DNA of 53,642 bases from a virus (Duplodnaviria; Caudoviricetes): the IMG/VR virus record IMGVR_UViG_3300008255_000158, positions 1 through 53,642 of that record. One strand, written 5' to 3'. The stretch's first letter is position 1; every line of letters starts with the position of its first letter. The translations under genes and the position numbers were made by a program. The notes beneath the pieces were generated by a model. The model was not told the DNA's origin. It worked only from the letters and a program-made list of their open reading frames with translations, and made no database searches. Below, piece by piece: positions 3,476 through 52,114 of the stretch.

Positions 3476-3967
3476 ATGAAGAGCTTTCTCACTTTCATCA
3501 TTCTCGCGGTCTGCGCGCTTCTTCAGGCGTGCCAATCGCCTGGTCAGGGTGCTGCGGCGGGTACGACGATCCCGCAGACGCAGGGAGCGCAGACGGTAGG
3601 CAATGACCAGGGTCAAGCGAGTGCCGCCGAGACCGGCGCTGCGACGACCCAGTCGAATCCCCTCATTTTCAACATCATGGCGGCGAAGACAGTCAACATC
3701 AAGACCGAACCGGGCAAGACGACCGACGTTGCTGTTGTCGGCTCCGACTATGCCGAGGTGAATATATCCGGCGCCGAGTTCGGATTGATGAAGTGGGGCA
3801 GTTACAATTCACTCGATGCCAGTACGTCGAGTGGTGGAGGAGCTGCGGGTGGTGTAGGCGGAGCAGTCAGAGCTCAGGAGGGAGTGTCGTCTTCCGGGAT
3901 CAATCCGACACTGCCTGTCTCGACTCCGCCAACTCCCGCAACCCCGGTCACTCCCCCGGGAAACTGA
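3476..3967 (+). CDS. Lipoprotein, low complexity (Gly/Ala/Thr/Pro-rich)
   Basis: AGGAG RBS; signal peptide MKSFLTFIILAVCALLQAC; Pro/Thr-rich C-terminus. Confidence 0.65.
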   Translation: MKSFLTFIILAVCALLQACQSPGQGAAAGTTIPQTQGAQTVGNDQGQASAAETGAATTQSNPLIFNIMAAKTVNIKTEPGKTTDVAVVGSDYAEVNISGAEFGLMKWGSYNSLDASTSSGGGAAGGVGGAVRAQEGVSSSGINPTLPVSTPPTPATPVTPPGN

Positions 3968-6059: not shown

Positions 6060-7754
6060 ATGGTGAGTCCAGTTAGCAGCACCCGTGGGAAGCACGCAAT
6101 CACGTTGGCCGCCAATGTCGTCAATTCGACGACGGTGGCCTATGACCGTATGACTCGCAGATGGGGACTGCCGGATACGTTGATGGGTGGCACTGTGAGT
6201 ATGCGCGAGGCGGGGGAGAAGTACCTCCCCAAGGAACCCCGCGAACAACAGCGCACTTGGCAGAATCGCTTAAACAGATCAATCCTCTTCAATGCTTACG
6301 AAGATACCCTCAAGAAGGTGTCGGCGAAGCCCTTTGAAGAGCCGATTACCATCAAGAACGAGGAGAAGCTCGATCCCCGACTTTCGAAGCTGCCGAAGAA
6401 CGTGGACATGCAAGGCAACTCGCTGACCCAGTTCGGAAATGCCCTATTCAAGAACGCTCTTCATAGGGGGCTGATCCACGTCTACATCGACTATCCAACG
6501 GTCGACCTCGAGAATCCGCCGACCCTGTCCCAGGAGATCGAGGGAAACATCAGGCCCTACTTTACTCAGGTCGATCCGATTGACCTTCCGGCCTGGCGTT
6601 CTCGAGTGATGCCGTCGGGTGAGCGGATGCTAGCTCAAGTCCGCCTGCTCGAGACTGAGGTCATTCCCGATGGTGACTTCGGTGAGAAGGTGAGAGAGAC
6701 CATCCGAGTCGTCACAGCGCCTGATTGCGATGACCTCGATATCCTTCAGAAGTTCATCGCTCGGGAGATTGACTGGCGTGTCTTCGTTGATCGTGGCGGC
6801 GAGCTTGGTGAAGTGAGAGTGTTCGAGCGGGTTACTCAGAAGGACGAAGACCTGCCCGAAAACAAGCGCTCGAGCTCGAACTTTGAGGATTCGAAGTTCG
6901 AGGAGGTCACCGAGGAGGGTGGAGCTCACACCTATCCTGGAATTCCGCTTAGAACGCTCTATATCAACAAAACGGGGTTCATGACCGCGGAGCCACCTTT
7001 CGAGGACCTTGCCTGGCTGAATCTCGCTCATTGGCAAAGCATGAGCGACCAGCGCAATATCCTCCGATTCGCTCGAGTCGGTATCCTTTTCATGACCGGC
7101 TTGAGCAAGCAGGAAATGGAGAAGGAGCTCGTCGTCGGCCCCACCCAAATGTGGCGCTCGACCAATCCCGAAGCGAAGCTCACTCACGTTGAGCACTCGG
7201 GCGCATCGATTGAAGCGGGTGAGCGTGACCTCAAGGAACTCGAGAGGCGAATGGAAGTGCTCGGACTGCAGCCATTTGTTGAGAGTGCTGGTAACGTGAC
7301 CGCCACTGCTCGATCAATCGATACCAGCAAGGAGCAGGCGGCAATCAAGTCGTGGGTTCGCGGGCTCGAGCTCCTGCTCGAGCAGTGCTTCGAATGCGCG
7401 AGTATCTGGCTCGGCGTTGAACTGCCCGACGACTTCGCCGTGGACGTCTTCAGTGAATTCTCGCTCGGCATGAAGGCAAGCACGGATACCGATCAGCTGA
7501 TCAAGCTCCGCGACCCGATCAATCCCAACATCAGCCACAAGACGCTTATCGCCGAACTCAAGAGACGGGGGCTGCTCAGTGATGATGTCGACTCCGACGA
7601 GGAGATGGAGCGTATAGCTGAAGAGGGAGGGGGAATTGACCGTTTCTTGGAGTCGGGGATCGACCCGGTTACGGGGCTGCCCATTGACCACAGTACCGAT
7701 CACACGAAAGACCCAGTCAAGGAACCCGATCCGGAGCTTCCCGCCGAGGAATAG
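6060..7754 (+). CDS. Portal protein (DUF4055-like)
   Basis: MREAGEKYLPK, RLNRSILFN, PPFEDLAWLNLAHWQSMSD and TAT motifs; lies between terminase and head genes. Confidence 0.9.
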   Translation: MVSPVSSTRGKHAITLAANVVNSTTVAYDRMTRRWGLPDTLMGGTVSMREAGEKYLPKEPREQQRTWQNRLNRSILFNAYEDTLKKVSAKPFEEPITIKNEEKLDPRLSKLPKNVDMQGNSLTQFGNALFKNALHRGLIHVYIDYPTVDLENPPTLSQEIEGNIRPYFTQVDPIDLPAWRSRVMPSGERMLAQVRLLETEVIPDGDFGEKVRETIRVVTAPDCDDLDILQKFIAREIDWRVFVDRGGELGEVRVFERVTQKDEDLPENKRSSSNFEDSKFEEVTEEGGAHTYPGIPLRTLYINKTGFMTAEPPFEDLAWLNLAHWQSMSDQRNILRFARVGILFMTGLSKQEMEKELVVGPTQMWRSTNPEAKLTHVEHSGASIEAGERDLKELERRMEVLGLQPFVESAGNVTATARSIDTSKEQAAIKSWVRGLELLLEQCFECASIWLGVELPDDFAVDVFSEFSLGMKASTDTDQLIKLRDPINPNISHKTLIAELKRRGLLSDDVDSDEEMERIAEEGGGIDRFLESGIDPVTGLPIDHSTDHTKDPVKEPDPELPAEE

Positions 7755-29159: not shown

Positions 29160-29852
29160 ATGACACAGCCGACCTCCTCACGATTCGGTCTACCGCTATT
29201 GGCTGAAAACCAGAACTCAGCTGAGATCACCGTTAACCAGTTCACCAATTTGATGGAGGCGCTAAACGGTGGTGGGCTTATTCCGATTGTCGAGTCGAAC
29301 CTCAACACTCCACCGGGATCGCCGACCAATGGCCAAGTCTGGGTCATTGGGTCATCCCCGACTGGTGCATGGGCATCCAACGCCGACGAGCTTGTCATCT
29401 ATTTGGATGGGTGGTTTTTCTTCGACATCAGCTCGGCGGACCTGTCAACTCCTGTCATGGCGTTTGACGCAACGGCCAAGGAGATGATTGCGTTCTCGCC
29501 GTTCGAGGACTTGTGGTACCCCGTGCAAGATCGGTGGTCCGCGACACAGCACTGGACTGGTCGGTATCAGAACGGCGTCAAGCTGTACAGCAAGTCGCTG
29601 CTGAACATCACGGCGCCTGGGTCATTGGCAACTGTCAACACTGCCCACAGCATTACCTCGCTTAACCTGGATGAGCGGATTAATTTTGAGATCTGTTGGT
29701 TCCACAATACCGGTGGTGCTGTCGCTTTCTCAGCGCCGCTTGCCCAGGTCCAACACACCATCGATGGGACCAATTTTGCGATGGTCGATGGATCGGGAAT
29801 GGATTGGTCAGCGTGGAGAGTTGACGTTCGACTTGAGTACACAGTCGACTAG
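29160..29852 (+). CDS. DUF2793-like tail fibre protein
   Basis: R..LPLL...Q...EIT.N and PP.SP..GQ.W.IG..PTGAW. Confidence 0.8.
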   Translation: MTQPTSSRFGLPLLAENQNSAEITVNQFTNLMEALNGGGLIPIVESNLNTPPGSPTNGQVWVIGSSPTGAWASNADELVIYLDGWFFFDISSADLSTPVMAFDATAKEMIAFSPFEDLWYPVQDRWSATQHWTGRYQNGVKLYSKSLLNITAPGSLATVNTAHSITSLNLDERINFEICWFHNTGGAVAFSAPLAQVQHTIDGTNFAMVDGSGMDWSAWRVDVRLEYTVD

Positions 29853-29936
29853 CGAGCTACGGCGTGATTTTGGCGTCCCTGGGACGCTTATCACGAGACG
29901 ATGACTGTCTGAGCTCGGAATCAACTAAAGCAGCTA

Positions 29937-29978
29937 TAGAGACGCCCCCAACTCTGTGATGAGCCGGGGGCGTTTCTA
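29937..29978. terminator. Hairpin terminator between the convergent arms
   Basis: TAGAGACGCCCCC / GGGGGCGTTTCTA inverted repeat. Confidence 0.65.
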
Positions 29979-29992
29979 GTCAGCCGGGTCTA

Positions 29993-30190
29993 TCAGGGAT
30001 AGACGTAGGCGTTGACTCCCACGGTGATGTCCTTCTCCTCACCATCGACGTTGATCTTGCAGCCCGACGACTTGTTGCCGTTGCTCGTGGCGACGACCAG
30101 CGTCTTGCCCGACTTGGAAGGACGGATGGGGTTGACCAGGGGGAGGGTGATGATCAGGGACTTCTTGTCCTTCGAGATTTCAACCTTCAT
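29993..30190 (-). CDS. Small hypothetical protein (PSKSGKTLVVATS.GN type)
   Basis: AGGAGCAAG RBS; strongly biased codons. Confidence 0.75.
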   Translation of the reverse strand: MKVEISKDKKSLIITLPLVNPIRPSKSGKTLVVATSNGNKSSGCKINVDGEEKDITVGVNAYVYP

Positions 30191-30219
30191 GAACTTGCTC
30201 CTGTGGCTTGTTGTTGCAG

Positions 30220-31191
30220 TTACTTGGACTTGAGACCGCCCTTATGGCCGAGTTCGCGGAGTCGTGCGCGGATACGCCGTTTCTCACCCTTGTCGGCCGA
30301 AGTGCGGAGTCGGTTCGTCAATTCCTCCAGGTCATCGGACATTTCCTTTGAGGCCTTGGAGGAAGTGACTGCAGCGCCGCCGTCTTTTGCTCGGCGACCC
30401 TTGCGCTTCTTGGCAGACGCGACCGTTGCGCCTGCTGGTGCGGGTGTGGCGTCATCATCGACGCGGTAGTTGCTCGTGCCGGACAGCGCCCTCGCCGTCG
30501 TGAAGTTGAGGGCAACCCCGATCTTCGGGACGCGCTCTTCTGTTCCCCTCAGCGCGGGAACGCTAAGGGTACAGCAACGTGAGCCCCCTGCCCTGACCCC
30601 GAGATTACGAAACTCCCGGAGTGTGGCAATGATGTTATCCAGCTCATCGACGGTCTTCAGCTCAAGGATCGGCTGATCGGCCTTCTTGCGAAGGTCGTCC
30701 AACGTCAATGCAGAGCCGTCGAGACGTTGATGGAGAAACTTGTTGGCCATGGCGCAGATGTCCGCGCTCATCGATGACGGCCGCTCACGCGGATCATCGA
30801 GGTAGAGCGTGGACTCAACCGAGTAGGGATACCCGTTGAATTGGCACCACATATCGATTGCGAACCCGTGGATTCCCCCAGCGAACTGAGTTCTACGCCA
30901 CTGCCCATAGAAATGGGCCTTGTTCCCGACGCAGTCAATGACATCGACGGTAAAGTTGATTCGCTCTTTGTCCCAGACAACCGGGTACTGATTGAATCCC
31001 CTTGCCTCGTCGGTATCGTCCTCGTCGTTCTCGGGCAATAGCTCGTTGGCGCTTAGCGTCAACGACTCACCATCGTCAAAAACGACGGTGACTCTCTTAC
31101 CCTTGCTTGCAACCGATTCGACCGCACCAGCGTAAATGACCGTGTCAAAGACCGCTTTGACTCTGTCACCAGCTGACCACTTGACAGTCAT
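30220..31191 (-). CDS. Early protein with N-terminal Tudor/SH3-like domain and C-terminal LRxLGHKGG module
   Basis: GDRV...Y.G.V...V.FDDG at the N-terminus; EKRRIRARLRELGHKGG at the C-terminus; AGGAGCAAG RBS. Confidence 0.75.
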   Translation of the reverse strand: MTVKWSAGDRVKAVFDTVIYAGAVESVASKGKRVTVVFDDGESLTLSANELLPENDEDDTDEARGFNQYPVVWDKERINFTVDVIDCVGNKAHFYGQWRRTQFAGGIHGFAIDMWCQFNGYPYSVESTLYLDDPRERPSSMSADICAMANKFLHQRLDGSALTLDDLRKKADQPILELKTVDELDNIIATLREFRNLGVRAGGSRCCTLSVPALRGTEERVPKIGVALNFTTARALSGTSNYRVDDDATPAPAGATVASAKKRKGRRAKDGGAAVTSSKASKEMSDDLEELTNRLRTSADKGEKRRIRARLRELGHKGGLKSK

Positions 31192-31272
31192 GGTTTCTTG
31201 CTCCTATTCGCTTTTCAGAGATCGGGTGATTGAGCCCCCCAGATGGGAGGGGGAACAATCGATGACTGGCGA

Positions 31273-31301
31273 ACAATAAGCTCATTGGTCATCGCAGTCA
31301 A
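31273..31301 (-). promoter_or_regulatory. Sigma70-type promoter
   Basis: TTGACT-17 nt-TATTGT. Confidence 0.7.
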
Positions 31302-31360
31302 GTCGTCATTTCGCGATGACGGATTAGTGCTAATACTGACGGTATTAAGCTTTTCATGCC

Positions 31361-31392
31361 ATAAGAAAGGGCGCGTCCGAAGACGCGCCCTT
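31361..31392 (-). terminator. Intrinsic terminator
   Basis: 11-bp stem with C(UUCG)G loop and U-rich tail on the minus strand. Confidence 0.8.
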
Positions 31393-31458
31393 ATCAGACT
31401 AGTGCGAGGATCATAATGAGTGCCACACCCGCGAAAATGAGTACCTCGCGAATGAAGC

Positions 31459-31788
31459 TCATGACTTCTCGGCCCTTTCGAGGATCATCAGGTCGTGCTC
31501 ATGACACAGTCGCTGCATGGTCGAGTACATCGAGTCCCAGAGGGCGTCGAAGATGAGCTTGTCTTCCGCGCTGACGTTCGGATTGAATTCGGGATGCTCA
31601 CCGAAGTAGTCGGCGATAAGGGTCTCGAAGAACGCGGACTCCTCGATGGAGACGCAGTCGACCTCCGCGCCGAGATTGTGCGCGATGCCCCGAAGCGATC
31701 CTGCTCTCATCTTCTCGTAAGCGAAGGCAAGATGAGCGAACGCCTGTCCAATTAGTATTGCATCGTGGACGGTGAGTTGGATAATCAC
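31459..31788 (-). CDS. Hypothetical early protein
   Basis: TAGGAGCAAG RBS before GTG 31788. Confidence 0.65.
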   Translation of the reverse strand: MIIQLTVHDAILIGQAFAHLAFAYEKMRAGSLRGIAHNLGAEVDCVSIEESAFFETLIADYFGEHPEFNPNVSAEDKLIFDALWDSMYSTMQRLCHEHDLMILERAEKS

Positions 31789-31884
31789 TGAACTTGCTCC
31801 TAGTGGTTGGTTTTGAAGGGGATTCAATTGTCAGAGAGCGGGGGCGCGGGCATTAGGCCCCGCGGCGCTATATCGAGCTAGCGC

Positions 31885-31913
31885 ATACTGTAGCCCCTGG
31901 GGCTTGTCGTCAA
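31885..31913 (-). promoter_or_regulatory. Probable sigma70-type promoter
   Basis: TTGACG-17 nt-CAGTAT (weak -10). Confidence 0.45.
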
Positions 31914-32170
31914 TGACCCCCACCAGAACGACGGTGAGGGGTCAAGGAGTGATCCAGAAAAAATGCCACTACGCGGTAAAAAATCGTGCTTTTTGAGCAC
32001 AAGGGCCCTGGGGCGCTTTAAATCGCCGTGGGGGCGTTTTGGGGCTCGTGGGGGAGAAACGTCAGCTGTGGGCTCAAAAACGCCCCTACGGCGATTCTCG
32101 GCGTATTGTGGCCGAGCTGCTGGGGGCGGGCGCGACGACATCGGGGCCCTCGATTGCCCCTGTAGCTATG

Positions 32171-32204
32171 AAACGACCCCCACCACAGCCGACGGGGGTC
32201 GTTT
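32171..32204 (-). terminator. Hairpin terminator
   Basis: AAACGACCCCC / GGGGGTCGTTT inverted repeat downstream of ORF 32226-32435. Confidence 0.6.
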
Positions 32205-32225
32205 GATGGTGACGACGGTAAGGGC

Positions 32226-32435
32226 CTAATGGCCGGCCATCGTTTCATGAGGGACGCGGTAAACGTGGGCAGGATTGAATTGCTTGATGAACATCCGGAC
32301 GATCGAGGGGTAAACGTAGCCGAGGAAAATGACATTCCCCTGCCCGTGCCGTTTGAGCCAGCATCCGATTTTTCGACTACCCTCTATCTTCGTGACGATG
32401 AGATCGTGATTGCGGCGACGGTTGTTGCGGTTCAT
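32226..32435 (-). CDS. Hypothetical small basic protein
   Basis: Starts 3 nt after the upstream stop; followed by a terminator. Confidence 0.5.
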   Translation of the reverse strand: MNRNNRRRNHDLIVTKIEGSRKIGCWLKRHGQGNVIFLGYVYPSIVRMFIKQFNPAHVYRVPHETMAGH

Positions 32436-32438
32436 GGA

Positions 32439-32609
32439 TCAGTTACCTTTCACGGGGGTAAGGGAGTTGACTGTGACCACCGCGTCGATGTCGCAATTGG
32501 CGCAGCGAACGACCCAGACGAGAGCGTTCGGATCGGAGTCGACTGACAGGACGCGGACGGTCGTTTCGAGGGTCGCGCAGAAGAAGAGATCGTTTTCGCG
32601 GATGGTCAT
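32439..32609 (-). CDS. Hypothetical small protein
   Basis: AAGGA RBS before ATG 32609. Confidence 0.5.
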   Translation of the reverse strand: MTIRENDLFFCATLETTVRVLSVDSDPNALVWVVRCANCDIDAVVTVNSLTPVKGN

Positions 32610-32842
32610 TTTCGGTTCCTTTCGGTTTCGGACGTCTCTCATATTGCACTTGCCGGGCTATACCTGGGAAAATACATGGTACCCGGTTAAAACGGCGATT
32701 TGGCCTGGTATACCGCTACTAATCGGTTTGGCACGCCCTCGGTCGACGACCCCTGGCTGGAGGGCAAACTGTAAAGGCAATTTTACAGATGCCGTAAAAC
32801 GGTAAACCGAATTTTACTGGTATGCGCCGACCCACGGGGCTA

Positions 32843-32879
32843 CGAAAAAGCCCCCGATATGGAGTCGGGGGCGTTTTCG
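32843..32879 (-). terminator. Intrinsic terminator
   Basis: GCCCCCGA / TCGGGGGC stem flanked by A and T runs. Confidence 0.75.
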
Positions 32880-32885
32880 AGGGCT

Positions 32886-33242
32886 TCATTCAGCGACGGT
32901 TGCCTGGCGCATACCGCCCTTATGACCGAGTCGACGGAGGGCAGCGCGGAGATTCTTCTTCGCTCCCTGATCGTCGGTCGAGCGCAGCGCTTCAAGCAGC
33001 GTCTCGATCTCGACGGCGCGGTCTTCCTCGGATAGGACATCGATCAGCGCGGGACGGCCCGGCTTGCGGATCGTCAGCTCGTTGAAGCCGAGGGTCTTCT
33101 CGGTATCGTCGTCGAAACGGACACGCGCCTTGTGGTTCTTGAAGACTTTGACGACGTGGCCGATGTAGAGCTCGCCGTCGAGTTCGACGTTGACGTTAGA
33201 GCCGGCCTCGATCACGTTGCTGTTGTTGTTGCTGGTAGCCAT
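32886..33242 (-). CDS. Early protein with Tudor/SH3-like domain and LRxLGHKGG module
   Basis: Y.G.V......ARVRFDD; AKKNLRAALRRLGHKGG; AGGAGCAAG RBS. Confidence 0.8.
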   Translation of the reverse strand: MATSNNNSNVIEAGSNVNVELDGELYIGHVVKVFKNHKARVRFDDDTEKTLGFNELTIRKPGRPALIDVLSEEDRAVEIETLLEALRSTDDQGAKKNLRAALRRLGHKGGMRQATVAE

Positions 33243-33424
33243 GATTTCTTGCTCCTGGTTTGGTTCGATTGAACCGGGTTTTATTCAGTGGTGATTGAAG
33301 GGGGCAAGAGCATGGACTCCGGGGGGCCTTGTTCAGGCCCTGGGGTCGTGCTCGTATTCACTTGTCAGAGATCGGTCGTCGATTCGAGGGCAATCGAGCG
33401 TCGATTCAAGATCGACGTAGGAGG

Positions 33425-33453
33425 ACAATATACCCATCGGGGTAGGGGGTCAA
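33425..33453 (-). promoter_or_regulatory. Sigma70-type promoter
   Basis: TTGACC-17 nt-TATTGT; same -10 as the promoter at 31273. Confidence 0.7.
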
Positions 33454-33604
33454 GGACCTTGAGGCCCTTTTTGAAAGATTGCCACAAGTCGGGGCATGGC
33501 AACGGGTTGTGGGCACGTGGTTTTTTCGTTCGGGGGGTCTGAAGGGGGCCCCCTGGGGCGTTGACGGGGCATGACCGGCGGTTGGGGGCTTCAGGCATGG
33601 GGGC

Positions 33605-33648
33605 ATAAAGGAGCCCCCGTTCGCTTGCTTTGTTCAGCGAACGGGGGC
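33605..33648 (-). terminator. Hairpin terminator
   Basis: 13-bp perfect stem GCCCCCGTTCGCT / AGCGAACGGGGGC. Confidence 0.65.
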
Positions 33649-33708
33649 GATTGAGAGCGGCACGGGAAGGGTCGTGCCGTCATCAGTCAGGGCCGACGAT
33701 TGCGGTGA

Positions 33709-34032
33709 TTAGTCCTCGGCGACATCGCCGACGGGCTTCTTGCTCTTGCGCTTGGGGGAAGGCTTCGTCGCGGCCTTCTTGCGCGAGCTGGCCTTCTTCG
33801 CCGTCGCAGCCTTGCGCTCGGTCTGACGACCACCACCACGATGACCGCGACTCCGCAGCTTCGCACGGATCTTCTTCTTGTCCTGCTGGTCGACGGCGTT
33901 ATCCAGAGCAATCAAGAGATCCTCGATGGACTCGACCTCCCGCTCGACCTTCGGGGCCTTTGCGGACTTCTCCGCCTTTGCACTGACCTTCTTTTTTGAG
34001 GTCTTCTTCTTGGATGCGACTTTCTTTGCCAT
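33709..34032 (-). CDS. Lys/Ala-rich histone-H1-like protein with central LRxRGHRGG module
   Basis: AGGAG RBS; KKxxSKKK-type tails on both sides of DKKKIRAKLRSRGHRGG. Confidence 0.75.
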   Translation of the reverse strand: MAKKVASKKKTSKKKVSAKAEKSAKAPKVEREVESIEDLLIALDNAVDQQDKKKIRAKLRSRGHRGGGRQTERKAATAKKASSRKKAATKPSPKRKSKKPVGDVAED

Positions 34033-34111
34033 TTTGGCTACTCCTGTTTCGGGTGTAAAACTATCGAGCTAGGGCCACAAGGTAGGACAGAGTCGCCGCG
34101 TTGTCGGCTTT

Positions 34112-34164
34112 AAAATAGAAAAAGGGCCCCACGGCTAGGAGCAAGAAGAAACGCCGTGGAGCCC
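34112..34164 (-). terminator. Intrinsic terminator of the polA operon with a 17-nt loop
   Basis: 12-bp stem (one G-U pair only on the minus strand) followed by UUUUUCUAUUUU. Confidence 0.8.
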
Positions 34165-34212
34165 ATGCCTCGTCGCCGTGACTACCCGACAACGAGGAAA
34201 TCCTAACGACGA

Positions 34213-36174
34213 CTAACCAGCCATGTTGTACTTTTCTTTCTTAGACCACCGTCGTTTCACGACCTCGGGTGAAACGGTGATTGGGACATTGAAGTTCTTC
34301 AAGTCCTCCATGAGCTTAACCAGCTCGGGAATCACCCATCTCTCGGTCGCCGGAACCTCGAACACGATCTCGTCGTGGACGGTAAGAATCATCCTCGTCT
34401 TGAGCTTCATAGCACGGAGCCATTTCCAAGCCCTGACCATAGAAAGCTTCATCAAGTCAGCTGAAGTGCCCTGGCACATATAGTTCAGGGCCTTATAGCA
34501 GAACTTGACTGGGATGTGGTAACGACGACCAAAGGGATTCTCGACGTATCCGTTGACCTTCAACGAGTTCGCAAGCGTCCCCGTTAGCGCTCTCACGCTC
34601 GGGAAGCTTCGATGGTATGCAGTGCAAATCCGTGACGACTCTAGGGCTGTTGTAGGCAGTCCCTTCTTCGTCAACGTCACTGCAACTGTCTTTGCTCCAG
34701 CCCCATACAGGATGCCAAAATTGACGCCCTTAGCTCGCTTACGTTGTTCACTGGTGATCTTGGATGGGTCGAGCTTATATACCTTTGCGGCTGTGTGCAA
34801 GTGGATATCACTTGCAACGGCTTTAGCCATCTCTGCATCTTCAGAGAAATGGGTGAAGAACTTCATCTCAACCTGGTCGTAGTCAATGTGGAAATTCCAC
34901 CGGCCACGACGAGTGATGAAACACTCCCGAGGCCCGAGCTTACGTGGTTGATTCTGCAAGTTCGGTTCGCTCGATGAGAATCGGCCCGTCAGCGCCTCGC
35001 TTTGGTTGAATTTGCAGTGGAGGATGCCGACTCGACGACCGTTGGGCTCGATCCTGACATCCACTGCATTGTTGAGGAAATAGTCGTAGTAGGTCGAAAC
35101 CATTTTCTTCAGCTGGCGAATCTTCCAGATGAAGGGAGGGACAACCTCTCGAGGTTCGAGTCGATGTTTCTTGACCGTTTCGTGGACCGCATTGTAGAAC
35201 TTGCGCCACGGCCATCCTTCCTCACTCGACTCCCTCAGCGTATACGCCAACGGGGCTGAGACGTATCGGATGATGGCGTACTCGTCAAACGCCCAGTTCC
35301 CTCCACCAGACATCTTACCGCCCTTAGCTCTCTTGGGCTCTGTCTTGAACTTCAGGGGGATTCCCAATTTGCGCCATGCGGCAACGCACTGGGGCTGTGA
35401 GTTCGGCTTGAACTTCTTGACCGTCTCGGTGACTGTTACGCCCTTTCGCTTTCGCTCAACCTCGATTGACCCCACCATCGATTCGAGCTCATGCTGAAGA
35501 ACCTCAATTCCTGCTTCAGCTTCAGCCTTCAATTCAGCGGCCCGGGTGAGGTCAACGGGGACGCCGTAACTCTCCATGTCCACGCAGACTTTCATCAGCA
35601 TCTGCTCGGTTGACATCAGCTCGGGACACGTTGAGCTGACCCGGGGGTACAACAAACCGAATAGCATGAGAGTGTGCTTGACGTCCCACAGGCACCGACG
35701 CTTGACCACGTCTCGAGGGGCGTCTGAGAAGTTGGGTGCCCTGCCATTAGCCGATTTGAAGCTTCTGGCGTTGGTTTTGAGCCAGTGCTCGACCTCGTCT
35801 TTGTCGCCGGGGCTGGCGTTCAAGAATCTCATTGCCAACGACCGGAGATCGTGCCTCCCGTTCTCGTTGTAGAGCTTTGACAATATCAGGGTGCAGTGGA
35901 TATCGGCGACACAGTCGAAGATATCGAGCCCCTCGGAGTGCAAGAACCCGAGATCGAACTTGGCGTTATGGAATACGAGCTTCTTTCGCTTCCTTAGCAG
36001 GCGACCAAGGAATCTTTTTGACACTCTATCCCACGGCATAAAGCCGTACTCGCCCTTCTCAGTGTAGTAAGCCATGCAGAATGGCTTATGCCCCTTGACG
36101 TAGCTCAGCCCCGTTGTCTCGAGATCGAGAGCGATTACGCTCCCGCGGACAACTGGTACACTGTTACTCTGCAT
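34213..36174 (-). CDS. polA: Family A DNA polymerase with 3'-5' exonuclease
   Basis: DLETTG, FHNAKFD, TGRFSSSEPNLQN, motif A DYDQVE, motif B R..AK..NFGILYG, motif C VHDE. Confidence 0.95.
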   Translation of the reverse strand: MQSNSVPVVRGSVIALDLETTGLSYVKGHKPFCMAYYTEKGEYGFMPWDRVSKRFLGRLLRKRKKLVFHNAKFDLGFLHSEGLDIFDCVADIHCTLILSKLYNENGRHDLRSLAMRFLNASPGDKDEVEHWLKTNARSFKSANGRAPNFSDAPRDVVKRRCLWDVKHTLMLFGLLYPRVSSTCPELMSTEQMLMKVCVDMESYGVPVDLTRAAELKAEAEAGIEVLQHELESMVGSIEVERKRKGVTVTETVKKFKPNSQPQCVAAWRKLGIPLKFKTEPKRAKGGKMSGGGNWAFDEYAIIRYVSAPLAYTLRESSEEGWPWRKFYNAVHETVKKHRLEPREVVPPFIWKIRQLKKMVSTYYDYFLNNAVDVRIEPNGRRVGILHCKFNQSEALTGRFSSSEPNLQNQPRKLGPRECFITRRGRWNFHIDYDQVEMKFFTHFSEDAEMAKAVASDIHLHTAAKVYKLDPSKITSEQRKRAKGVNFGILYGAGAKTVAVTLTKKGLPTTALESSRICTAYHRSFPSVRALTGTLANSLKVNGYVENPFGRRYHIPVKFCYKALNYMCQGTSADLMKLSMVRAWKWLRAMKLKTRMILTVHDEIVFEVPATERWVIPELVKLMEDLKNFNVPITVSPEVVKRRWSKKEKYNMAG

Positions 36175-36644
36175 TGCTTCAGTACCTCAAGCCCTTCATG
36201 GTTTCTGTACGGGCGGTCGTAGTAAACGGTTCGGACCCCCGCATTGACTAGTCGCTGGGCGCACATTCTGCACGGCTCGGTCGTAGTGAATGCGACCTTG
36301 TCCGTTGCTCGAGAATCGACTTGAAGACAGGCATTGTCTTCAGCGTGAAGACATCCGCAACCCCCCTCTCTGCCCCGGCACGACGAAGAGGGGAGTCCCT
36401 TTGCGGGTCCGTTGTATCCGAACGCCAGAATCTGCCGTAGATCAGCGGTAGTGATGACGCAGCCCACTTGTGCTCTTTTGCATATCGACCTCTTCGCCCA
36501 CAATGTGGCAGTGAGCATATGCAGCACTTCGCGGGCGGGTCGGGCATCGCACTCGTGAGGGCATGCTGGATGGTGAATCGATCCGCAGCCCCTACACCGA
36601 GACGCTCCCATCCCCACCGACTGTTGGCATTCGGAACACTTCAT
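36135..36644 (-). CDS. dCMP deaminase with N-terminal Cys-rich extension
   Basis: S.C.R.QVG, GYNG, HAE.NA and PC..C motifs. Confidence 0.9.
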   Translation of the reverse strand: MKCSECQQSVGMGASRCRGCGSIHHPACPHECDARPAREVLHMLTATLWAKRSICKRAQVGCVITTADLRQILAFGYNGPAKGLPSSSCRGREGGCGCLHAEDNACLQVDSRATDKVAFTTTEPCRMCAQRLVNAGVRTVYYDRPYRNHEGLEVLKQCRVTVYQLSAGA

Positions 36645-36868
36645 GACTTTCTCAGCTTCATATGGGTGGGGCAGATAACGCCAACACCATCGATGTATCT
36701 CCACCCGGACGTGAAGAGCTCACGACTGATGGACAGGTCGAGGGCCCCGCCAGTGATAGTGTCACTGTGGGGTTCTTCACACTTGATGCACTTGATCGAG
36801 TACGAAGTGGTGACATCGAGAATGGTGGTCATGCGCTGAATCTGGGTCACGGCGTTGCTCTTGCTCAT
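36641..36868 (-). CDS. Small Cys-containing protein
   Basis: CxxC...GW...CPxH; coupled start/stop overlaps on both sides. Confidence 0.6.
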   Translation of the reverse strand: MSKSNAVTQIQRMTTILDVTTSYSIKCIKCEEPHSDTITGGALDLSISRELFTSGWRYIDGVGVICPTHMKLRKS

Positions 36869-37644
36869 CAGAACTCACCTCGCTTCTTCAGGTCTTTGGC
36901 GTAGGCGTGGAGTGACCCGGCGAAGTAGGTGAACGCCCCAGTGGTAAGCTTCAGCTGGTCAGCGAACCACAGTTGAAGCTCGAGGGCCAGTGCGATGTCA
37001 ACGGGGAAGTGGGTCAGAAGGTCGCAAGAGCGCATGGTGTAGATCAGGTCAACTCGCTCTTTTCGGACCATCACCTGATAGTACATCGAGCAGGGAATAC
37101 GACCACCTCCACCAGCATTGAAGAAGTCGGTGCCCAGAATGGTTCGACCAGCATTGAATGCACTGCCGCAACCAATGATGTTGGAGTGCATCGTGATAAT
37201 CGCCTGGCGCGATCCGTTGTCATCCTGGAGACGCTTCACGATCTGAGCGATCTGGGGTGCGAACCGCTCAGAGTAGGTGTATGCGAACTCACCCCTCTCA
37301 TCGAGAAACTCGCGCCAGACGTGCTTTCGCTCAACCCACGCCGTGCCGGGATTCTGAGGGATGCCGCCGACTCGAGCTTGATGCTCCGCCTTGATGTAGG
37401 CAAGAACCGAGTCAAGCTCGGATCGGTCATCGAGCAAGTAGAAGATTCCATCAGCCAGATCGGCGCCGTCGTACGACCAGTCGGTGATCTTGAACCCGTA
37501 GCCCTGAAGCTCGCGAGTGACAAAGCGCGGGTCTTCGGCAATGTCCTTGTCTTGCATCGTTTTAGTATGCACTTCGATGCCCATCTCTTGAAGGTCGCGG
37601 GCCGTTTCCTTCATTGCCTCGAAAGGATTGGTGTAGATTCGCAC
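36868..37644 (-). CDS. Thymidylate-synthase-fold enzyme (dNMP methylase/hydroxymethylase type)
   Basis: YTYSER, SRQA, RIPCS, MRSCD...HFPVD and GSLHAY; AAGGAG RBS. Confidence 0.9.
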   Translation of the reverse strand: MRIYTNPFEAMKETARDLQEMGIEVHTKTMQDKDIAEDPRFVTRELQGYGFKITDWSYDGADLADGIFYLLDDRSELDSVLAYIKAEHQARVGGIPQNPGTAWVERKHVWREFLDERGEFAYTYSERFAPQIAQIVKRLQDDNGSRQAIITMHSNIIGCGSAFNAGRTILGTDFFNAGGGGRIPCSMYYQVMVRKERVDLIYTMRSCDLLTHFPVDIALALELQLWFADQLKLTTGAFTYFAGSLHAYAKDLKKRGEF

Positions 37645-44165: not shown

Positions 44166-44994
44166 TGGATGAACTCCTGATTTTCTTCTTGGTTGCGGTT
44201 GCTGTTTTGAACGTGGAACGGAACTTTGCGCCGTCGAGCAGCTCGTAGCCCTTCGACGGCTTTTGACGTTGAGTGCGATCCTTTGCATACACCGACTCAC
44301 TGGGCTCGGTGTAGATTACCCGTTTCTCGACTCGCTTGCCTCCTTGTTGCATTGCCTTGAATCCGCAGTAACCGACCAAGTCGACGAGTGGGACAATCAC
44401 CTTCCACGCCGTCTTACCCATGTCGGGCTGCACAATCTCACGCTCGATTCCGTGAACCCTTATTGTCTTGATCCCCTCATGGGAGATGAAGACAACGCCG
44501 ACGTTGAGCGCCTTCAGTCGCTGAACAACGTGACTGATCCGACGCTTGAACTCCTTCCAGCCCTGTCCCCACTTCGCGTCTGATAGCGAATCGATCTTGA
44601 GCTCGATTATCGTCTGGTCTTCTGCGTAGTTGGTGAAGTCGTCAACGTGGTCAATGCAGACCATATCGTACTTAGGCGCATTAGGCGCCTCGAGCTGTTC
44701 AAGAAGATCCAGGATGTCCTGGTAGTTGTTGACCTCGCGGACCTTCGCTTCGAGGTGTCGAGCGCCCCGATCAGTCGAGATAAACAGCACGTCTTGAGCG
44801 GCAAGGTCATTGACAAAGGTCGTCTTGCCTACACCCGGTGGGCCATAGAAAAGAGTGATGTACTGGTGAATGTCGGACGCCCCTCGCTTTGCGACCGTGG
44901 GAAGCTCGATCACCTTCTTGGCGGGAGTTGGTGGGGGGCTAGCCCGGCGTCGCTTTGCTGGCGGTGAAGTTTTTGCGGCTCGTTTGATGGCCAT
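44122..44994 (-). CDS. Sak4-like AAA ATPase / recombinase
   Basis: YGPPGVGKTT, CID, FISH, D.VGY and AKDR. Confidence 0.8.
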   Translation of the reverse strand: MAIKRAAKTSPPAKRRRASPPPTPAKKVIELPTVAKRGASDIHQYITLFYGPPGVGKTTFVNDLAAQDVLFISTDRGARHLEAKVREVNNYQDILDLLEQLEAPNAPKYDMVCIDHVDDFTNYAEDQTIIELKIDSLSDAKWGQGWKEFKRRISHVVQRLKALNVGVVFISHEGIKTIRVHGIEREIVQPDMGKTAWKVIVPLVDLVGYCGFKAMQQGGKRVEKRVIYTEPSESVYAKDRTQRQKPSKGYELLDGAKFRSTFKTATATKKKIRSSSNGEEVKKQGRRARR

Positions 44995-45467
44995 TAGTCG
45001 TCCTCGTCGTTGTTGAGGGCCTTCTCCCAGTTCTTGCGAACAAAGGGCTGAAGGCAGATGGGCGGCTCGTATTCAAGAATGCCCGACTCGATCTGGTCAA
45101 ACCAAGCGAGGGTGCTTCTCAAGTCAGAGGGGGTCATCGTCTCTGGGTCGGGCGAACCAGTCAGCACCTTACGATTGGCTAGAAGCTTACGATAGACCCT
45201 CTTGACGTAGTCAAGCCGGTCCTTCTCGATATTCTTCCTGTTCTCGAATTCGATTGCCCCAGTAGCGACTGCTAGGCGAAGACCAGCGACGATAGCCCGG
45301 GATGAGACAGTCTGTTGCGACTCGAGGGCTTGAGACGAGAACGCAGCGTTGACAGTCAATGACGCCAGCAATTTACCATCGCCTGCTAGCAACAAATTGA
45401 GGGACTCGTCCCGTAGTTGGTACATCTCTTCGATGTTGTCTGTGCGTCCTCGATTCTCCTTACTCAT
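44994..45467 (-). CDS. Hypothetical protein
   Basis: GGAGCAAG RBS before ATG 45467. Confidence 0.6.
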   Translation of the reverse strand: MSKENRGRTDNIEEMYQLRDESLNLLLAGDGKLLASLTVNAAFSSQALESQQTVSSRAIVAGLRLAVATGAIEFENRKNIEKDRLDYVKRVYRKLLANRKVLTGSPDPETMTPSDLRSTLAWFDQIESGILEYEPPICLQPFVRKNWEKALNNDEDD

Positions 45468-46907: not shown

Positions 46908-47186
46908 TCACTTCGCCCACTCGAGGTCAACGATGGTCATGCGGCCGTTCTCGTCTCCGAGAGCGGGGATGAGCATGGTCACCTCCTTGGTTCCGACCTT
47001 CACGGCGATGACTCGCGGCTTCTCACCGGCGAGCTCCTTGATGGCCGTCTTCTCGATCTCGAGGTTCTGGTTAACAAGCCGGTTCCGATCATTCGTGTCC
47101 CGGTCGATGCTCCGCTGGTGAGCATCGATCTTTTCGAGGTTCTCGATGAACCTCTTGACCTGGCTCTTCTTCTCGGATGCGCTCAT
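46908..47186 (-). CDS. Hypothetical protein
   Basis: In-operon ORF with biased codons. Confidence 0.6.
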   Translation of the reverse strand: MSASEKKSQVKRFIENLEKIDAHQRSIDRDTNDRNRLVNQNLEIEKTAIKELAGEKPRVIAVKVGTKEVTMLIPALGDENGRMTIVDLEWAK

Positions 47187-47953
47187 ACGATTGCCTTCCC
47201 TTGGCCCCTCTGGGATCGTTTCTTCTCGGTTTCCGCCAGTCGCCTGTGGCGGGATTCACGAAACTCTTTGGCCTTTGGCGACAGTGAATAGAGAACGGGC
47301 TTTGCTCCCCGTTTCTTGTTGTCCAACCAGCCCGTGCTAGTTAGTTGACCAATTCTGGTGTGGATCGTTTGCTTCCCTGGGCATTTGGTCATTCTGAGGG
47401 GGCGCCCTTCTCTAATGACTCCGACGATAGTGCGAATCTCAGCAGCGGTCTGAGCACCCCTCTCTACGGCGTACATGACCTCCGCAAGGGCCATTGATTC
47501 CAACTGGGGCCACCCTAGTGATGCAGCCTCAGCCCTCATGAGGTCTTTCACGATCTCGCATGGGCCCGATTTCCCAGTCGATTCTTTCCACCTCTTCATG
47601 GTGTATTGTGGATCGGAGCGCAGAGAAGCGACTGTGGGTAAACCCATCTTTTTCCGGTGATAGAGCACTGTGTTCCGATGCACCCCAGTCATGAGTGCAA
47701 TCCGACGATCCGAGTATCCCTGCTTGTTGAGCTTCTTGAGGCGTCTGGCGAATTTCTGGGGATTGGTCTGGACTATCGATGAGCCGCGATTGCTATTACC
47801 CCACCTGTGACCAAGGTTGTAGCGTCTGATCCGATAAGCCGTAGTCCTGGGAATCCCCATGATGTCGGCGATCTCGGTATCAGTGAACCCCTGGCGATAC
47901 AGGCTGTCTACCGCTTCGCCGCGTTGCTTGTTTTTCTCGTTTTTGGTTGGCAC
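47183..47953 (-). CDS. Multi-HTH DNA-binding protein
   Basis: QGFTDTEIADIMGIPRTT and QGYSDRRIALMTGVHRNTV repeats plus a winged-helix-like end; GGAGCAAG RBS. Confidence 0.75.
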   Translation of the reverse strand: MPTKNEKNKQRGEAVDSLYRQGFTDTEIADIMGIPRTTAYRIRRYNLGHRWGNSNRGSSIVQTNPQKFARRLKKLNKQGYSDRRIALMTGVHRNTVLYHRKKMGLPTVASLRSDPQYTMKRWKESTGKSGPCEIVKDLMRAEAASLGWPQLESMALAEVMYAVERGAQTAAEIRTIVGVIREGRPLRMTKCPGKQTIHTRIGQLTSTGWLDNKKRGAKPVLYSLSPKAKEFRESRHRRLAETEKKRSQRGQGKAIV

Positions 47954-47992
47954 TTCTTGCTCCAGTGCTATGCCCGAAAACTATCACGACTT

Positions 47993-49432
47993 TCAAATCC
48001 TCGATGCCAGAATTTTACGAAGAGGGTTCCCGTCGCGGAGCTGGTTCATCACGAAATTCGCAACATGGATATTGGTCTTCAGTGACTGCAGCACAGACAG
48101 GTCAATTGACCCCTCCGTAACGAGGTCATAATAGGTAATCACCTTATGACCCTCCGACCCCTTACGTCTGATTCTGGCTTCGCTCTGTTGACGGGAAGCA
48201 ACCCGGTATGAGTTCGAGAAGTAGACGGCGGTGTCGGAACACGCTAGCTCGTTCATGCCGACCCCCATATCCGCCTGGCCAACAAATACTCTCGGCCCTT
48301 TTGGTGATGCAAAGGCTAAACGGGCTTCCTTACGTTCCTTGGCGCTCATTGAGCCCGAGTAACGGATCGCGCTGATAGCGCGACGATTCAACTCATCGAC
48401 GATTCGACGCAGCTCAGCGCTGTAGTTCGCCCAGACGACAATCTTACGCTTCGATGACAATTCCCCCTCAGCGATGAGAGAAGTCAACAGATCGAGCTTG
48501 GGACACGTCAGTCTCCGAGTCTTTCGTTTCGCCGATCCGGGGACATCGTAGTAAAAAAACCCGGAGGCAATCTGCCTCAGCTTCGTTACCTGCTGCACAA
48601 TGTAGTTAAACTCGATTGGCTCATCGTCGTTGTTGACGTTGAGCTCGAAGTGCTCGATGACGTCTTCGGAGTATCGCCGTTGCTGGCCCGACATCCGAGC
48701 GCCCTTGGTAATTGATGTCACTGGGGGCAGTTTGAGAACGTCATCCTCATGGACGTGGAACGCCACCTGCCCCAGCTTTTGAGCGATTTGGTCCTTGGCG
48801 TTTTTTCGGGGAAACCACCCGCTTGCACCACCACCAACATTGGCCTTGAGGTAGTACTTCTTCAGGAATTTCCACTGGTTGTCGCCGAAGGTTCGACCGA
48901 GGTCAATGAAGTTCATTTGGCCAAATATGTCAAGAATCTCATTGGTGATAGGTGAGCCGGTCAGTCCAAACCGTACAGGGATGTGGCGGGTAACTCCTAT
49001 GAGCTGCTTTGAGCGTTGCGAGGTCGAGTGCTTTATCAAGTGGCACTCATCGGCGATGACTGTCCGAAATGGCGATGCAGCGATTGCGTTCGCCACGTCT
49101 TCGTTCTTCACCAGATCGTAGGTGACGAAAGTCCAAGGTGGTAGCGCATTAGGGACGATGTTTTTGGCCTTTGCGCCCGATGTGACGAATTCCATATCCA
49201 GTGGTAATGAGCCCTCGGCTGTAAGCTCTGCCTCCCAGGTCATGAAGTCATCCCGGCGACAGACCACAAGTGCTGGCAGCTTTGCACACCTGATAGCTAA
49301 AAGGGTCTTACCGGTTCCGGGGCGCATGAAGATGCCGACTTGAGCCGGCTTGGGCCGTGACTCGATGAAGCGCTTTGCGCGCTTTTGGTGGGGTAGAAGG
49401 GGTCTGACTACTGGGGCTTTGTGGTCGGGCAT
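47993..49432 (-). CDS. SNF2-family helicase
   Basis: LLPHQ, PGTGKT, DECH, LTGSP, G.GMN and Q.E.RI.R. Confidence 0.9.
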   Translation of the reverse strand: MPDHKAPVVRPLLPHQKRAKRFIESRPKPAQVGIFMRPGTGKTLLAIRCAKLPALVVCRRDDFMTWEAELTAEGSLPLDMEFVTSGAKAKNIVPNALPPWTFVTYDLVKNEDVANAIAASPFRTVIADECHLIKHSTSQRSKQLIGVTRHIPVRFGLTGSPITNEILDIFGQMNFIDLGRTFGDNQWKFLKKYYLKANVGGGASGWFPRKNAKDQIAQKLGQVAFHVHEDDVLKLPPVTSITKGARMSGQQRRYSEDVIEHFELNVNNDDEPIEFNYIVQQVTKLRQIASGFFYYDVPGSAKRKTRRLTCPKLDLLTSLIAEGELSSKRKIVVWANYSAELRRIVDELNRRAISAIRYSGSMSAKERKEARLAFASPKGPRVFVGQADMGVGMNELACSDTAVYFSNSYRVASRQQSEARIRRKGSEGHKVITYYDLVTEGSIDLSVLQSLKTNIHVANFVMNQLRDGNPLRKILASRI

Positions 49433-51312: not shown

Positions 51313-51839
51313 GATCTCCCCTTTGCCCGCGACTTGCGGGCTCGAAGTTGTTTGAGGTAGTCGAACAACGTATCTTCAGCTGAGGCGGACAGTCCACCTA
51401 TGCCCTTTTTGATGTCTTGGATACCGTCGTTCCAGGTATCGCGCCGTTTTTGAGCCCTAACGTCGTAGAGGTAGTTGACGACTCGAATCTGCCATGGATG
51501 TCGGGGTCGAGGAAGTGGCGGTGCGTCCTTTCCCCATACGATCTCGACTGCTTCACGAAGCTCCTTTCGGATGTGCGCTGGGGACACCCCGCGCTCCGCA
51601 GCGATCTCTCCGACTGTCCGATGAGTCGACATCGCTGCAACGATCCCACGACGACTGGAGACGTAGTCGTTGGGGGAGGTTGCGTCCTTAGCTTTGAATG
51701 ACCTGAGCCCGAGCTTGTTGATCCAGTAGTAGACAGTCGGAACGGAGACGCCGAGCTTGATCGCGCAGTAACGCGCCGATGGGGAAGATGTGTAAGCCTC
51801 GATGAACTGGTCATCGGTGATTGTGGGTGGCCGTGACAT
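51309..51839 (-). CDS. HTH DNA-binding protein
   Basis: CAIKLGVSVPTVYYW and EIAAERGVSPAHI. Confidence 0.7.
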   Translation of the reverse strand: MSRPPTITDDQFIEAYTSSPSARYCAIKLGVSVPTVYYWINKLGLRSFKAKDATSPNDYVSSRRGIVAAMSTHRTVGEIAAERGVSPAHIRKELREAVEIVWGKDAPPLPRPRHPWQIRVVNYLYDVRAQKRRDTWNDGIQDIKKGIGGLSASAEDTLFDYLKQLRARKSRAKGRS

Positions 51840-52114
51840 CAGTCGTCCTCACTCATCGGGCTCGGTCCGGGAAGCGCCTTGACGAATCTTATGAGGTCTC
51901 GTGGCAGATCTGATTCGATCTCTGCTTCAAATCCATCAATGAAGGTCATATGGAGCTCTGGAGGCCCTTCCAATCCCGCGCTGACATGAACTGAGGTAAC
52001 GAAGTGCAGAAGATGCTCATCACCGTTTGGCATCCTGATCCATACTTCTGTGCCCGCCGTCTCATTGACGAACTTCACGATGATCCGCGGCCGTTTCGTG
52101 GGGTTGTTACTCAT
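51839..52114 (-). CDS. Hypothetical protein
   Basis: GGAG RBS before ATG 52114. Confidence 0.6.
   Translation of the reverse strand: MSNNPTKRPRIIVKFVNETAGTEVWIRMPNGDEHLLHFVTSVHVSAGLEGPPELHMTFIDGFEAEIESDLPRDLIRFVKALPGPSPMSEDD

Follow-up and report, generated by a model that had tools for sequence, protein, structure and literature searches.

Downstream of polA on a contig of an uncultured phage (IMGVR_UViG_3300008255_000158), a hairpin carries in its large loop a sequence complementary to the translation initiation regions (TIRs) of six genes of the same genome. This hairpin is the local copy of a structured RNA element conserved in one clade of uncultured phages, and across at least four derived states of that clade the loop and the TIR extensions co-vary. 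The window analysed here is the whole linear viral contig of 53,642 bp (estimated 84% complete, GC ~55%), whose minus strand carries genes from ~53.6 kb down to ~30 kb. The element is best read as a trans-acting translational repressor RNA of a small private regulon, a reading to which a probability of roughly 0.65 can be given from the sequence comparisons below. The element and the gene preceding it comprise the following features.

34213-36174, minus strand: polA, an open reading frame (ORF) for a family A DNA polymerase of 653 aa, adjoining the hairpin element on its upstream side; stop codon at 34213-34215
34168-34197, minus strand: hairpin 1, an 11-bp stem including two G-U pairs, with an 8-nt loop (RNAfold)
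34124-34164, minus strand: hairpin 2, a GC-rich 12-bp stem (one G-U pair) with a 17-nt loop
34164-34153, minus strand: 5' arm of hairpin 2, GGGCTCCACGGC
34152-34136, minus strand: loop of hairpin 2, GTTTCTTCTTGCTCCTA, the anti-TIR loop 5'-GUUUCUUCUUGCUCCUA-3', complementary to six TIRs
34135-34124, minus strand: 3' arm of hairpin 2, GCCGTGGGGCCC, with one G-U pair
34123-34112, minus strand: U-tract, TTTTTCTATTTT, directly 3' of the stem, which gives hairpin 2 the shape of an intrinsic terminator

The original prediction had described two hairpins after polA with G-U pairs that form on the minus strand only, and both their coordinates and this strand preference were confirmed from the sequence and with RNAfold: on the plus strand the G-U pairs of both stems turn into C-A mismatches. 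Hairpin 2 has the GC-rich stem and the immediate U-tract of a terminator, but not the small loop: terminator loops typically have 3-8 nt, that of the window has 17 nt, and those of the relatives have 15-39 nt. The whole 17-nt loop is unpaired in the minimum free energy (MFE) fold. Because the terminator scan admits loops of 3-8 nt only, it could not call the full hairpin; at 34126-34142 (minus strand) it reported an alternative small stem of loop GCUCC with GGGGC of the 3' arm, possibly a competing conformer that masks the anti-Shine-Dalgarno (anti-SD) sequence. No Rfam family covers the hairpin, and relaxing the threshold to an E-value of up to 1 in window 29500-34400 gave four sub-threshold, unrelated matches.

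The loop complement TAGGAGCAAGAAGAAAC matches the sequence directly preceding the start codons of six minus-strand genes, over 12, 11, 11, 10, 9, and 8 nt, the match length being the longest contiguous stretch identical to the loop complement. These TIRs are located as follows.

31195-31206, minus strand: TAGGAGCAAGAA (12 nt, the best target), TIR of p323, a 323-aa gene at 30220-31191; RNAduplex -19.2 kcal/mol, against -8.3 kcal/mol as the median of all called genes
33246-33256, minus strand: AGGAGCAAGAA (11 nt), TIR of gene 32886-33242, 118 aa; RNAduplex -18.4 kcal/mol
47953-47963, minus strand: GGAGCAAGAAG (11 nt, extending to the G of the GTG start), TIR of gene 47183-47953; RNAduplex -19.9 kcal/mol
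31793-31802, minus strand: TAGGAGCAAG (10 nt, or 11 nt with one stem base), TIR of gene 31459-31788, GTG start, 109 aa
30194-30202, minus strand: AGGAGCAAG (9 nt), TIR of gene 29993-30190, 65 aa
45471-45478, minus strand: GGAGCAAG (8 nt, the weakest candidate), TIR of gene 44994-45467, 157 aa

The lengths agree with those first proposed (12, 11, 11 including a stem base, 11, 9, and 8 nt), and the proposal that the loop is an anti-ribosome-binding-site sequence directed against a defined gene set, with complementarity reaching past the Shine-Dalgarno (SD) core, is likewise supported. The SD core GGAG stands 4-12 nt before the start in 23 of the 81 called genes; CAAG comes next in 5 of these 23, every one of them encoded on the polA strand and not on that of the structural genes. 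A genome-wide count with positions relative to starts had been suggested as a check, and of the seven copies of the 8-mer GGAGCAAG in the window six lie on the minus strand, each 3-6 nt ahead of a start codon, with the seventh, on the plus strand, being the loop itself; the enrichment, in contrast, is only modestly unusual (mean 2.16 in shuffled sequences, 3 of 100 shuffles reaching seven). Sense-strand matches of at least 11 nt number exactly three in the 53.6 kb, all at TIRs, and those of at least 10 nt number six, four at TIRs and two at internal purine-rich sites. Not one of 2000 shuffled loops with CTCC held in place reached these six matches (mean 0.31, maximum 5), and the loop-TIR complementarity in the window is thus beyond chance. 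Predicted duplexes are correspondingly stable, at -18.4 to -19.9 kcal/mol for the top three window targets and -23.6 to -27.4 kcal/mol for six targets of the relative G001, against a median of about -8.5 kcal/mol for all called genes.

Four of the targets (starting at 33242, 31788, 31191, and 30190) belong to the operon that directly follows the hairpin, where the leftward transcription unit has its distal end, and only those at 47953 and 45467 lie upstream of the hairpin. From their place in this operon, the four are not early genes, and the silencing of early genes that had been proposed for this RNA is not supported in that form. The protein encoded at 47183-47953 is HTH_23 (Pfam, E 5.6e-11), a helix-turn-helix (HTH) family. 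p323 is the sole target kept across the relatives: its orthologues in G001, G007, G006, and G004 (27-31% identical) retain a loop-matched TIR. The p323 protein gave no significant match in Pfam or PHROGs, and its TM scores against a protein-structure atlas were all below 0.35. The gene at G001 51753-51986, an orthologue (32% identity) of the window gene 29993-30190, likewise has GGAGCAAG.

Relatives (designated here by G and L numbers) were sought in viral and metagenome contigs with polA, the C-terminal 130 residues of polA, and the 323-aa target protein as queries, which recovered 41 clade loci, 34 of them distinct, with polA 48-65% identical to that of the window and a GC content of 31-57%. 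Among 50,697 phage records, megablast gave no match for window 33000-37000, and tblastn with polA found DNA polymerase I matches of only ~25% identity. Sixteen hairpins, the window's included, stand 3' of polA and comprise at least 13 distinct stems; the stem sequences differ yet always pair, and TTGC[TC]CC (TTGTTCC in L167) stands at the 3' edge of the loop in all 16. In an in-register alignment of seven sequences, 63 of 63 cells pair and six of nine pairs are altered on both sides; the stem covariation score was reached by none of 500 shuffles, and sliding the partner columns cuts pairing to 27-54%. This seven-sequence subset and an in-house stem finder were used for the stem analysis; MAFFT with RNAalifold on 14 hairpins put the stems out of register and predicted just three spurious pairs, and an MFE-based filter missed 14 of the 16 hairpins because of small pairings within the loops. 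A covariance model built from seven relatives also finds L112 (29.9 bits), L167 (25 bits), L159 (20.2 bits), and L165 (18.0 bits). The transcribed strand is marked by G-U pairs that in the window, G001, and G006 fit the polA strand only, and by a stem G-U to A-U change from G001 to G007 or the reverse. Most of the 16 hairpins run into a T-rich tail (tails read by eye), and L167 has a comparable first hairpin preceding its anti-TIR hairpin.

The hairpin and the TIR motif tend to occur together. Of the 21 distinct genomes whose sequence continues for 1500 nt or more past polA, 11 have both, two the hairpin only, two the TIR motif only (a single motif TIR each), and six neither (Fisher p = 0.018, uncorrected for phylogeny). 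In the G005 lineage, an ordinary terminator without the motif occupies the same position, and its best TIR match is 6 nt. A CAAGGA(U/A)G leader was seen by eye 5-15 nt upstream of the 5' arm in G001, G007, L141, L143, and L152; its CAAGG may possibly pair with CCUUG of the loop to form a pseudoknot or a self-masking structure.

The loop and the TIRs change together from one lineage to another. Five or six matched loop/TIR states can be distinguished.

Window: matched sequence GGAGCAAGAA, with matches of 12, 11, 11, and 10 nt
G001 and G007: GGAGCAAGGCAA(A), with matches of 14, 13, 12, and 12 nt at four TIRs
L140, L141, L143, L146, and L152: the same GGAGCAAGGCAA state as G001, with matches of 12-13 nt
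L114: GGAGCAACGCAA, shared by the loop and four TIRs; at the altered position, the sister genome L143 retains G
L159: GGAGCAAGCA, 10 nt
G006: GGGGCAAGG, with loop CCCC where others have CUCC; found for the p323 orthologue and the gene after it
L163: AAAGGCAATGC, a match that takes in an ATG

Genomes in the G001 state have one to four matched TIRs apiece, and G001 and G007 also have TIRs GGAGTAAGGCAA, which pair through G-U. On the polA tree, the derived states (window, L114, G006, and L159) fall on separate branches, and L165, whose loop is near-identical to that of the window, falls in a different subclade. Covariation of loop and ribosome-binding site (RBS) in related phages had been put forward as a check on the idea, and the outcome is positive: the best matches of each loop within its own genome sum to 173, compared with a mean of 147.1 (sd 5.5) when loops are randomly reassigned among the 15 genomes, and none of 20000 reassignments reaches this fit.

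The element was originally taken for a part of the polA 3' untranslated region (3'UTR). In 8 of the 16 cases (G006, L112, L114, L141, L143, L152, L165, and L167), the hairpin is preceded at 22-37 nt by a perfect TATAAT, and L114 and L138 have a small gene between polA and the hairpin, so the element looks like a separate small RNA (sRNA) gene. L159 has TATGAT 27 nt before the hairpin, and in G001 TG-TATATT precedes it by 93 nt. The element is probably an independent sRNA gene of ~70-100 nt ahead of the distal operon. For the window, where no -10 box was found, the earlier view may still apply, and its hairpin is possibly the 3' end of the polA transcript. Between polA and the hairpin, several relatives also show a very strong SD followed by a mini-ORF of 2-6 codons, without a counterpart in the window (L001:8065-8097 in G001, G007 ~825-860, L012 ~7290-7315, and L014 ~3510-3540; the peptides are MKYRKQ in G001 and G007, MK in G004, and MNKLL in G008). 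The intergenic region from the hairpin to the operon holds repeated inverted repeats, GTAAGT-N(12-18)-ACTTAC by eye (G001 48480-48520; G006, oriented, 7590-7740; L112:7580-7800; L114:7940-8120), which look like operators, and in G006 a strong promoter-like site, TTTACA-17-TATACT.

In the favoured mechanism, the hairpin RNA would be transcribed from the polA strand, probably from its own -10 promoter in many relatives, and the GC stem and the U-tract would end transcription and stabilise the RNA. The large single-stranded loop would display the anti-TIR sequence and pair with a phage-private extended RBS, consisting of the SD core GGAG, CAAG, and an extension specific to each lineage, which in some relatives runs as far as the start codon. 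This motif is borne by four to six phage mRNAs, chiefly those of the downstream operon and above all that of the 323-aa gene. Pairing over 10-14 nt across the SD and the spacer should keep the 30S subunit off and thereby repress translation. In general sRNA action, covering the SD and the spacer normally blocks initiation. Since the pairing here covers both, exclusion of the 30S subunit is to be expected and repression is the most likely effect. Three of the features expected of a trans-acting sRNA that occludes TIRs are found in the element: an accessible single-stranded seed within a stable structure, as indicated by the MFE fold and the stem covariation, complementarity of the seed to the SD and start region of targets beyond chance, and seed-target co-variation among relatives. 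We infer that the RNA accumulates, for which the -10 boxes in 8 of the 16 cases and the terminator shape speak, that it pairs with its targets in vivo, and that it represses them.

A number of points weigh against this repressor reading. The direction of regulation is pure inference, and a trans factor other than the loop could likewise hold the TIR copies uniform. A 12-bp duplex within a closed 17-nt loop is topologically strained, and opening of the stem may be needed for full pairing. The window, G004, L140, L146, and L162 gave no -10 box ahead of the hairpin. The window hairpin scores weakly with the covariance model of its relatives (34117-34164, 16.8 bits, E 0.15), L140 and L146 are without a U-tract, and in L138 the hairpin loop is a bare UUCCUU and motif TIRs are absent. 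The G004 loop matches its own TIRs (9, 9, and 8 nt) no better than those of other genomes, and the L162 loop pairs in two 6-nt blocks only. The wobble pattern, which speaks for pairing, is itself weakened: among the mismatches at wobble-capable positions, 22 of 41 are G-U compatible against 13.7 expected (p = 0.006), as are eight of eight in the single-mismatch TIR variants (rows read by eye), an excess confounded by transition bias, non-independent orthologous TIRs, and noisy two-mismatch hits. Gene starts were set by a simple in-house caller (81 genes called in the window). A profile scan of genome contigs with the alignment of the polA C-terminus, directed at a host or prophage relative, gave 29 pattern hits, none of them relatives. 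The sequencing runs listed for window 33000-35000 comprised two DNA runs, one of them possibly from the source sample, and no RNA run.

The alternative that survives best, itself unlikely, accepts a real RNA pairing with another outcome: action in cis on read-through transcripts, activation or stabilisation of the target mRNAs, or processing, for instance together with hammerhead ribozymes. The hairpin is on the same strand as most of its targets and upstream of them, and the sequence leaves the sign of regulation unfixed. Type II hammerheads (Hammerhead_II, RF02276; 44-47 bits, above the gathering score) were found in the operon 3' of the hairpin in three relatives, each ~15-20 nt upstream of a motif TIR.

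L012:9436-9507: type II hammerhead, ahead of the TIR GGAGCAAAgcaATG at L012:9527
L091:5558-5627: type II hammerhead, ahead of the TIR GGAGCAAGGCAAATG at L091:5645
L092:3136-3200: type II hammerhead, ahead of the TIR GGAGTAAGGCAATG at ~L092:3219

The Rfam search, however, found no hammerhead in the window, and the window targets at 47953 and 45467 are upstream of the hairpin. One loop cannot bind four to six TIRs in cis simultaneously, and in the relatives the hairpin is set apart from the operon by a terminator, which is followed by a strong promoter-like site of its own. A block of initiation is also the usual consequence of covering an SD and its spacer.

Considerably less probable is that the motif is a double-stranded DNA site of a phage DNA-binding protein, such as the HTH protein of 47183-47953, whose own gene is among those bearing the motif. 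Such a site, present in both orientations, would likewise predict a concerted change of all copies in a genome, since each copy would follow the protein in its evolution rather than the other copies. The start-associated sequence (SAS) of mycobacteriophages is equally unexplained, with a protein or an RNA partner left open in the available text of its description (PMC3203893). Yet the lone reverse copy lies in a hairpin loop in 16 of 16 cases, within stems that covary as RNA and have G-U pairs on the transcribed strand only, and the forward copies keep an exact RBS spacing. The enrichment of G-U-compatible changes in variant TIRs and the shift of the match in L162 and L163 to take in the AUG also fit pairing better than a fixed protein site.

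It is very improbable that the loop is a genuine RBS of the opposite strand driving a small plus-strand ORF. In some relatives a start codon does stand at proper spacing (TTG in G001, G007, L114, and G006, ATG in L112, and GTG in G004), but these ORFs span 2-35 codons and would encode peptides that by eye are unrelated. In the window, no plus-strand ORF of at least 20 aa uses 34136-34147 as its RBS, an ORF that the original prediction had named as a result refuting it; the nearest start is a GTG 12 nt past the 8-mer, with 16 codons. On the plus strand the stem G-U pairs would be C-A mismatches, and the promoter scan found no promoter for that strand. Least probable of all is an ordinary intrinsic terminator whose anti-SD likeness arose by chance or descent without function: the GC stem and U-tract are of standard shape, every CUCC-containing loop matches SD cores, and the GGAGCAAG enrichment alone is modest, but the CTCC-preserving shuffles never reach the observed count, the loop is conserved while the stems diverge, loop and TIR extensions have changed together in four or more derived states, and the motif-free G005 terminator is without TIR complementarity. 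An invertible promoter segment between the inverted motif copies was considered and dropped, with a spacing of ~220 nt in G001 versus ~880 nt and two genes in the window and no adjacent invertase seen.

Some further features of these genomes were noted. Among 10 proteins compared with Pfam and PHROGs, only the HTH domains of 47183-47953 and a dCMP deaminase (36135-36644) were significant. Several otherwise unrelated, lysine-rich operon proteins share by eye the ending [KR]xIRxxLRxLGHxGG, which has no Pfam or PHROG match (window 33709-34032 and 30220-31191; G001 48637-49041; L014 ~3599-3830; L114 ~7200-7290; L138; L166). The polA of G008 (L105/L014, 616-3393) encodes 925 aa, with an insert of ~290 aa after the TGRF motif in the alignment that looks like an intein or a homing-endonuclease insert. 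Two contigs of sample id 3300024265, G003 and G007, appear to be the halves of a single phage genome, with polA residues 6-403 at one end of G003 and 405-653 at the start of G007.

RNAs that cover an RBS by antisense pairing are already well known, and it is the matching of a loop to a dedicated RBS code of several genes that would be new. In bacterial sRNAs such as the 3' domain of Staphylococcus aureus RNAIII, RsaE, and Bacillus subtilis RoxS, pyrimidine-rich hairpin loops pair with the SD of several mRNAs and block initiation. The phage element resembles them in its accessible pyrimidine-rich loop, which in these sRNAs is sometimes that of the terminator hairpin itself. They differ in being host-encoded and in setting short UCCC/CCCC seeds against ordinary SDs, whereas the phage loop would pair over 10-14 nt with a co-evolving, phage-specific RBS. 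The 3'UTR-derived sRNAs CpxQ, SroC, and DapZ share the terminator of the upstream gene and usually have the seed 5' of the terminator hairpin. The 3' end of the window RNA would similarly coincide with that of the polA mRNA, from which the RNA could be released; in contrast, its seed is in the terminator loop, and among the relatives a -10 box in 8 of 16 cases and a gene before the hairpin in two set the element apart.

In its action, the element would work most like the c4 antisense RNA of phages P1 and P7. According to the available text of its descriptions, the loops of c4 pair with the target mRNA, one of them partly occluding the RBS, and the loop sequence sets the specificity and differs between related phages (PMC5320573; PMC12197685). 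Both are phage-encoded structured RNAs on the same strand as and upstream of their targets, with a hairpin loop set against an RBS, and here too the loop is complementary to the RBS of downstream genes in the transcription unit (four of six targets), which is a likeness of action and not of membership. The Rfam C4 family gave no match at the gathering score in the window, L001, L012, L091, and L092, nor at an E-value of up to 1 in window 29500-34400. The phage element has one or two hairpins rather than three, a single loop over the SD and spacer rather than split a'/b' loops, and four to six targets with one private RBS motif rather than one operon leader, and neither RNase P processing nor an immunity or antirepressor setting is indicated for it. 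In the literature searched, as far as its text was available, no phage RNA was found whose loop is matched to a dedicated multi-gene RBS code and changes with it across phages. If the repressor reading is true, the element would provide unusually clean sequence-only evidence of sRNA-target co-evolution, a new family of phage RNAs for which viromes can be searched, and a matched regulator-RBS pair naturally independent of host RBS rules, with possible use in synthetic biology.

The motif itself is most reminiscent of the SAS of Cluster K mycobacteriophages. In the available text of its reports, the SAS is asymmetric, combines an SD core with an extension past the 16S pairing, and precedes by 3-7 bp the start codons of some of the non-structural genes, nearly always in one orientation with a lone reverse copy in some genomes; its role was given as "not known" from 2011 to 2025 (PMC3203893; PMC11373665; PMC12699233). 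The same arrangement is found here, an SD-containing motif before a subset of non-structural starts in one orientation with a lone reverse copy, and the forward and reverse copies number six and one in the window, six and one in G001, and sixteen and one in Anaya. The two differ in sequence, the 13-bp SAS consensus GGGATAGGAGCCC not being matched by the window motif (T)AGGAGCAAGAA, with which only the SD core is common, as well as in host, phage lineage, and number of sites (13-19 per Cluster K genome). In Anaya (JF704106), the reverse SAS at ~59,870-59,882 (L190:34871-34883) reads on the gene strand as GCGCGG-[CCUCCUAUCC]-CCGCGC, a 6-bp GC stem with a 10-nt loop, and sits in a gap of 385 nt that carries no annotation and is conserved across 154 phage records. 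The eight Cluster K phages aligned all have the same stem, which thus shows no covariation, and in Ximenita the reverse copy GGGAAGGGAG (L198:34869-34878) has drifted from the 13 forward GGGATAGGAG sites; loop-target co-variation is therefore not seen in Cluster K. The extension of the hairpin-RNA reading to the SAS is a lead only, positive for Anaya-type phages and unsupported in Ximenita. It is a rather doubtful but broader view that hairpin RNA and phage-specific extended RBS form a private translational channel, co-evolving and gating a small regulon independently of host SD rules, which may also explain the Cluster K SAS. If true, the role of SAS-type motifs would become testable through their lone reverse copy as a hairpin RNA.

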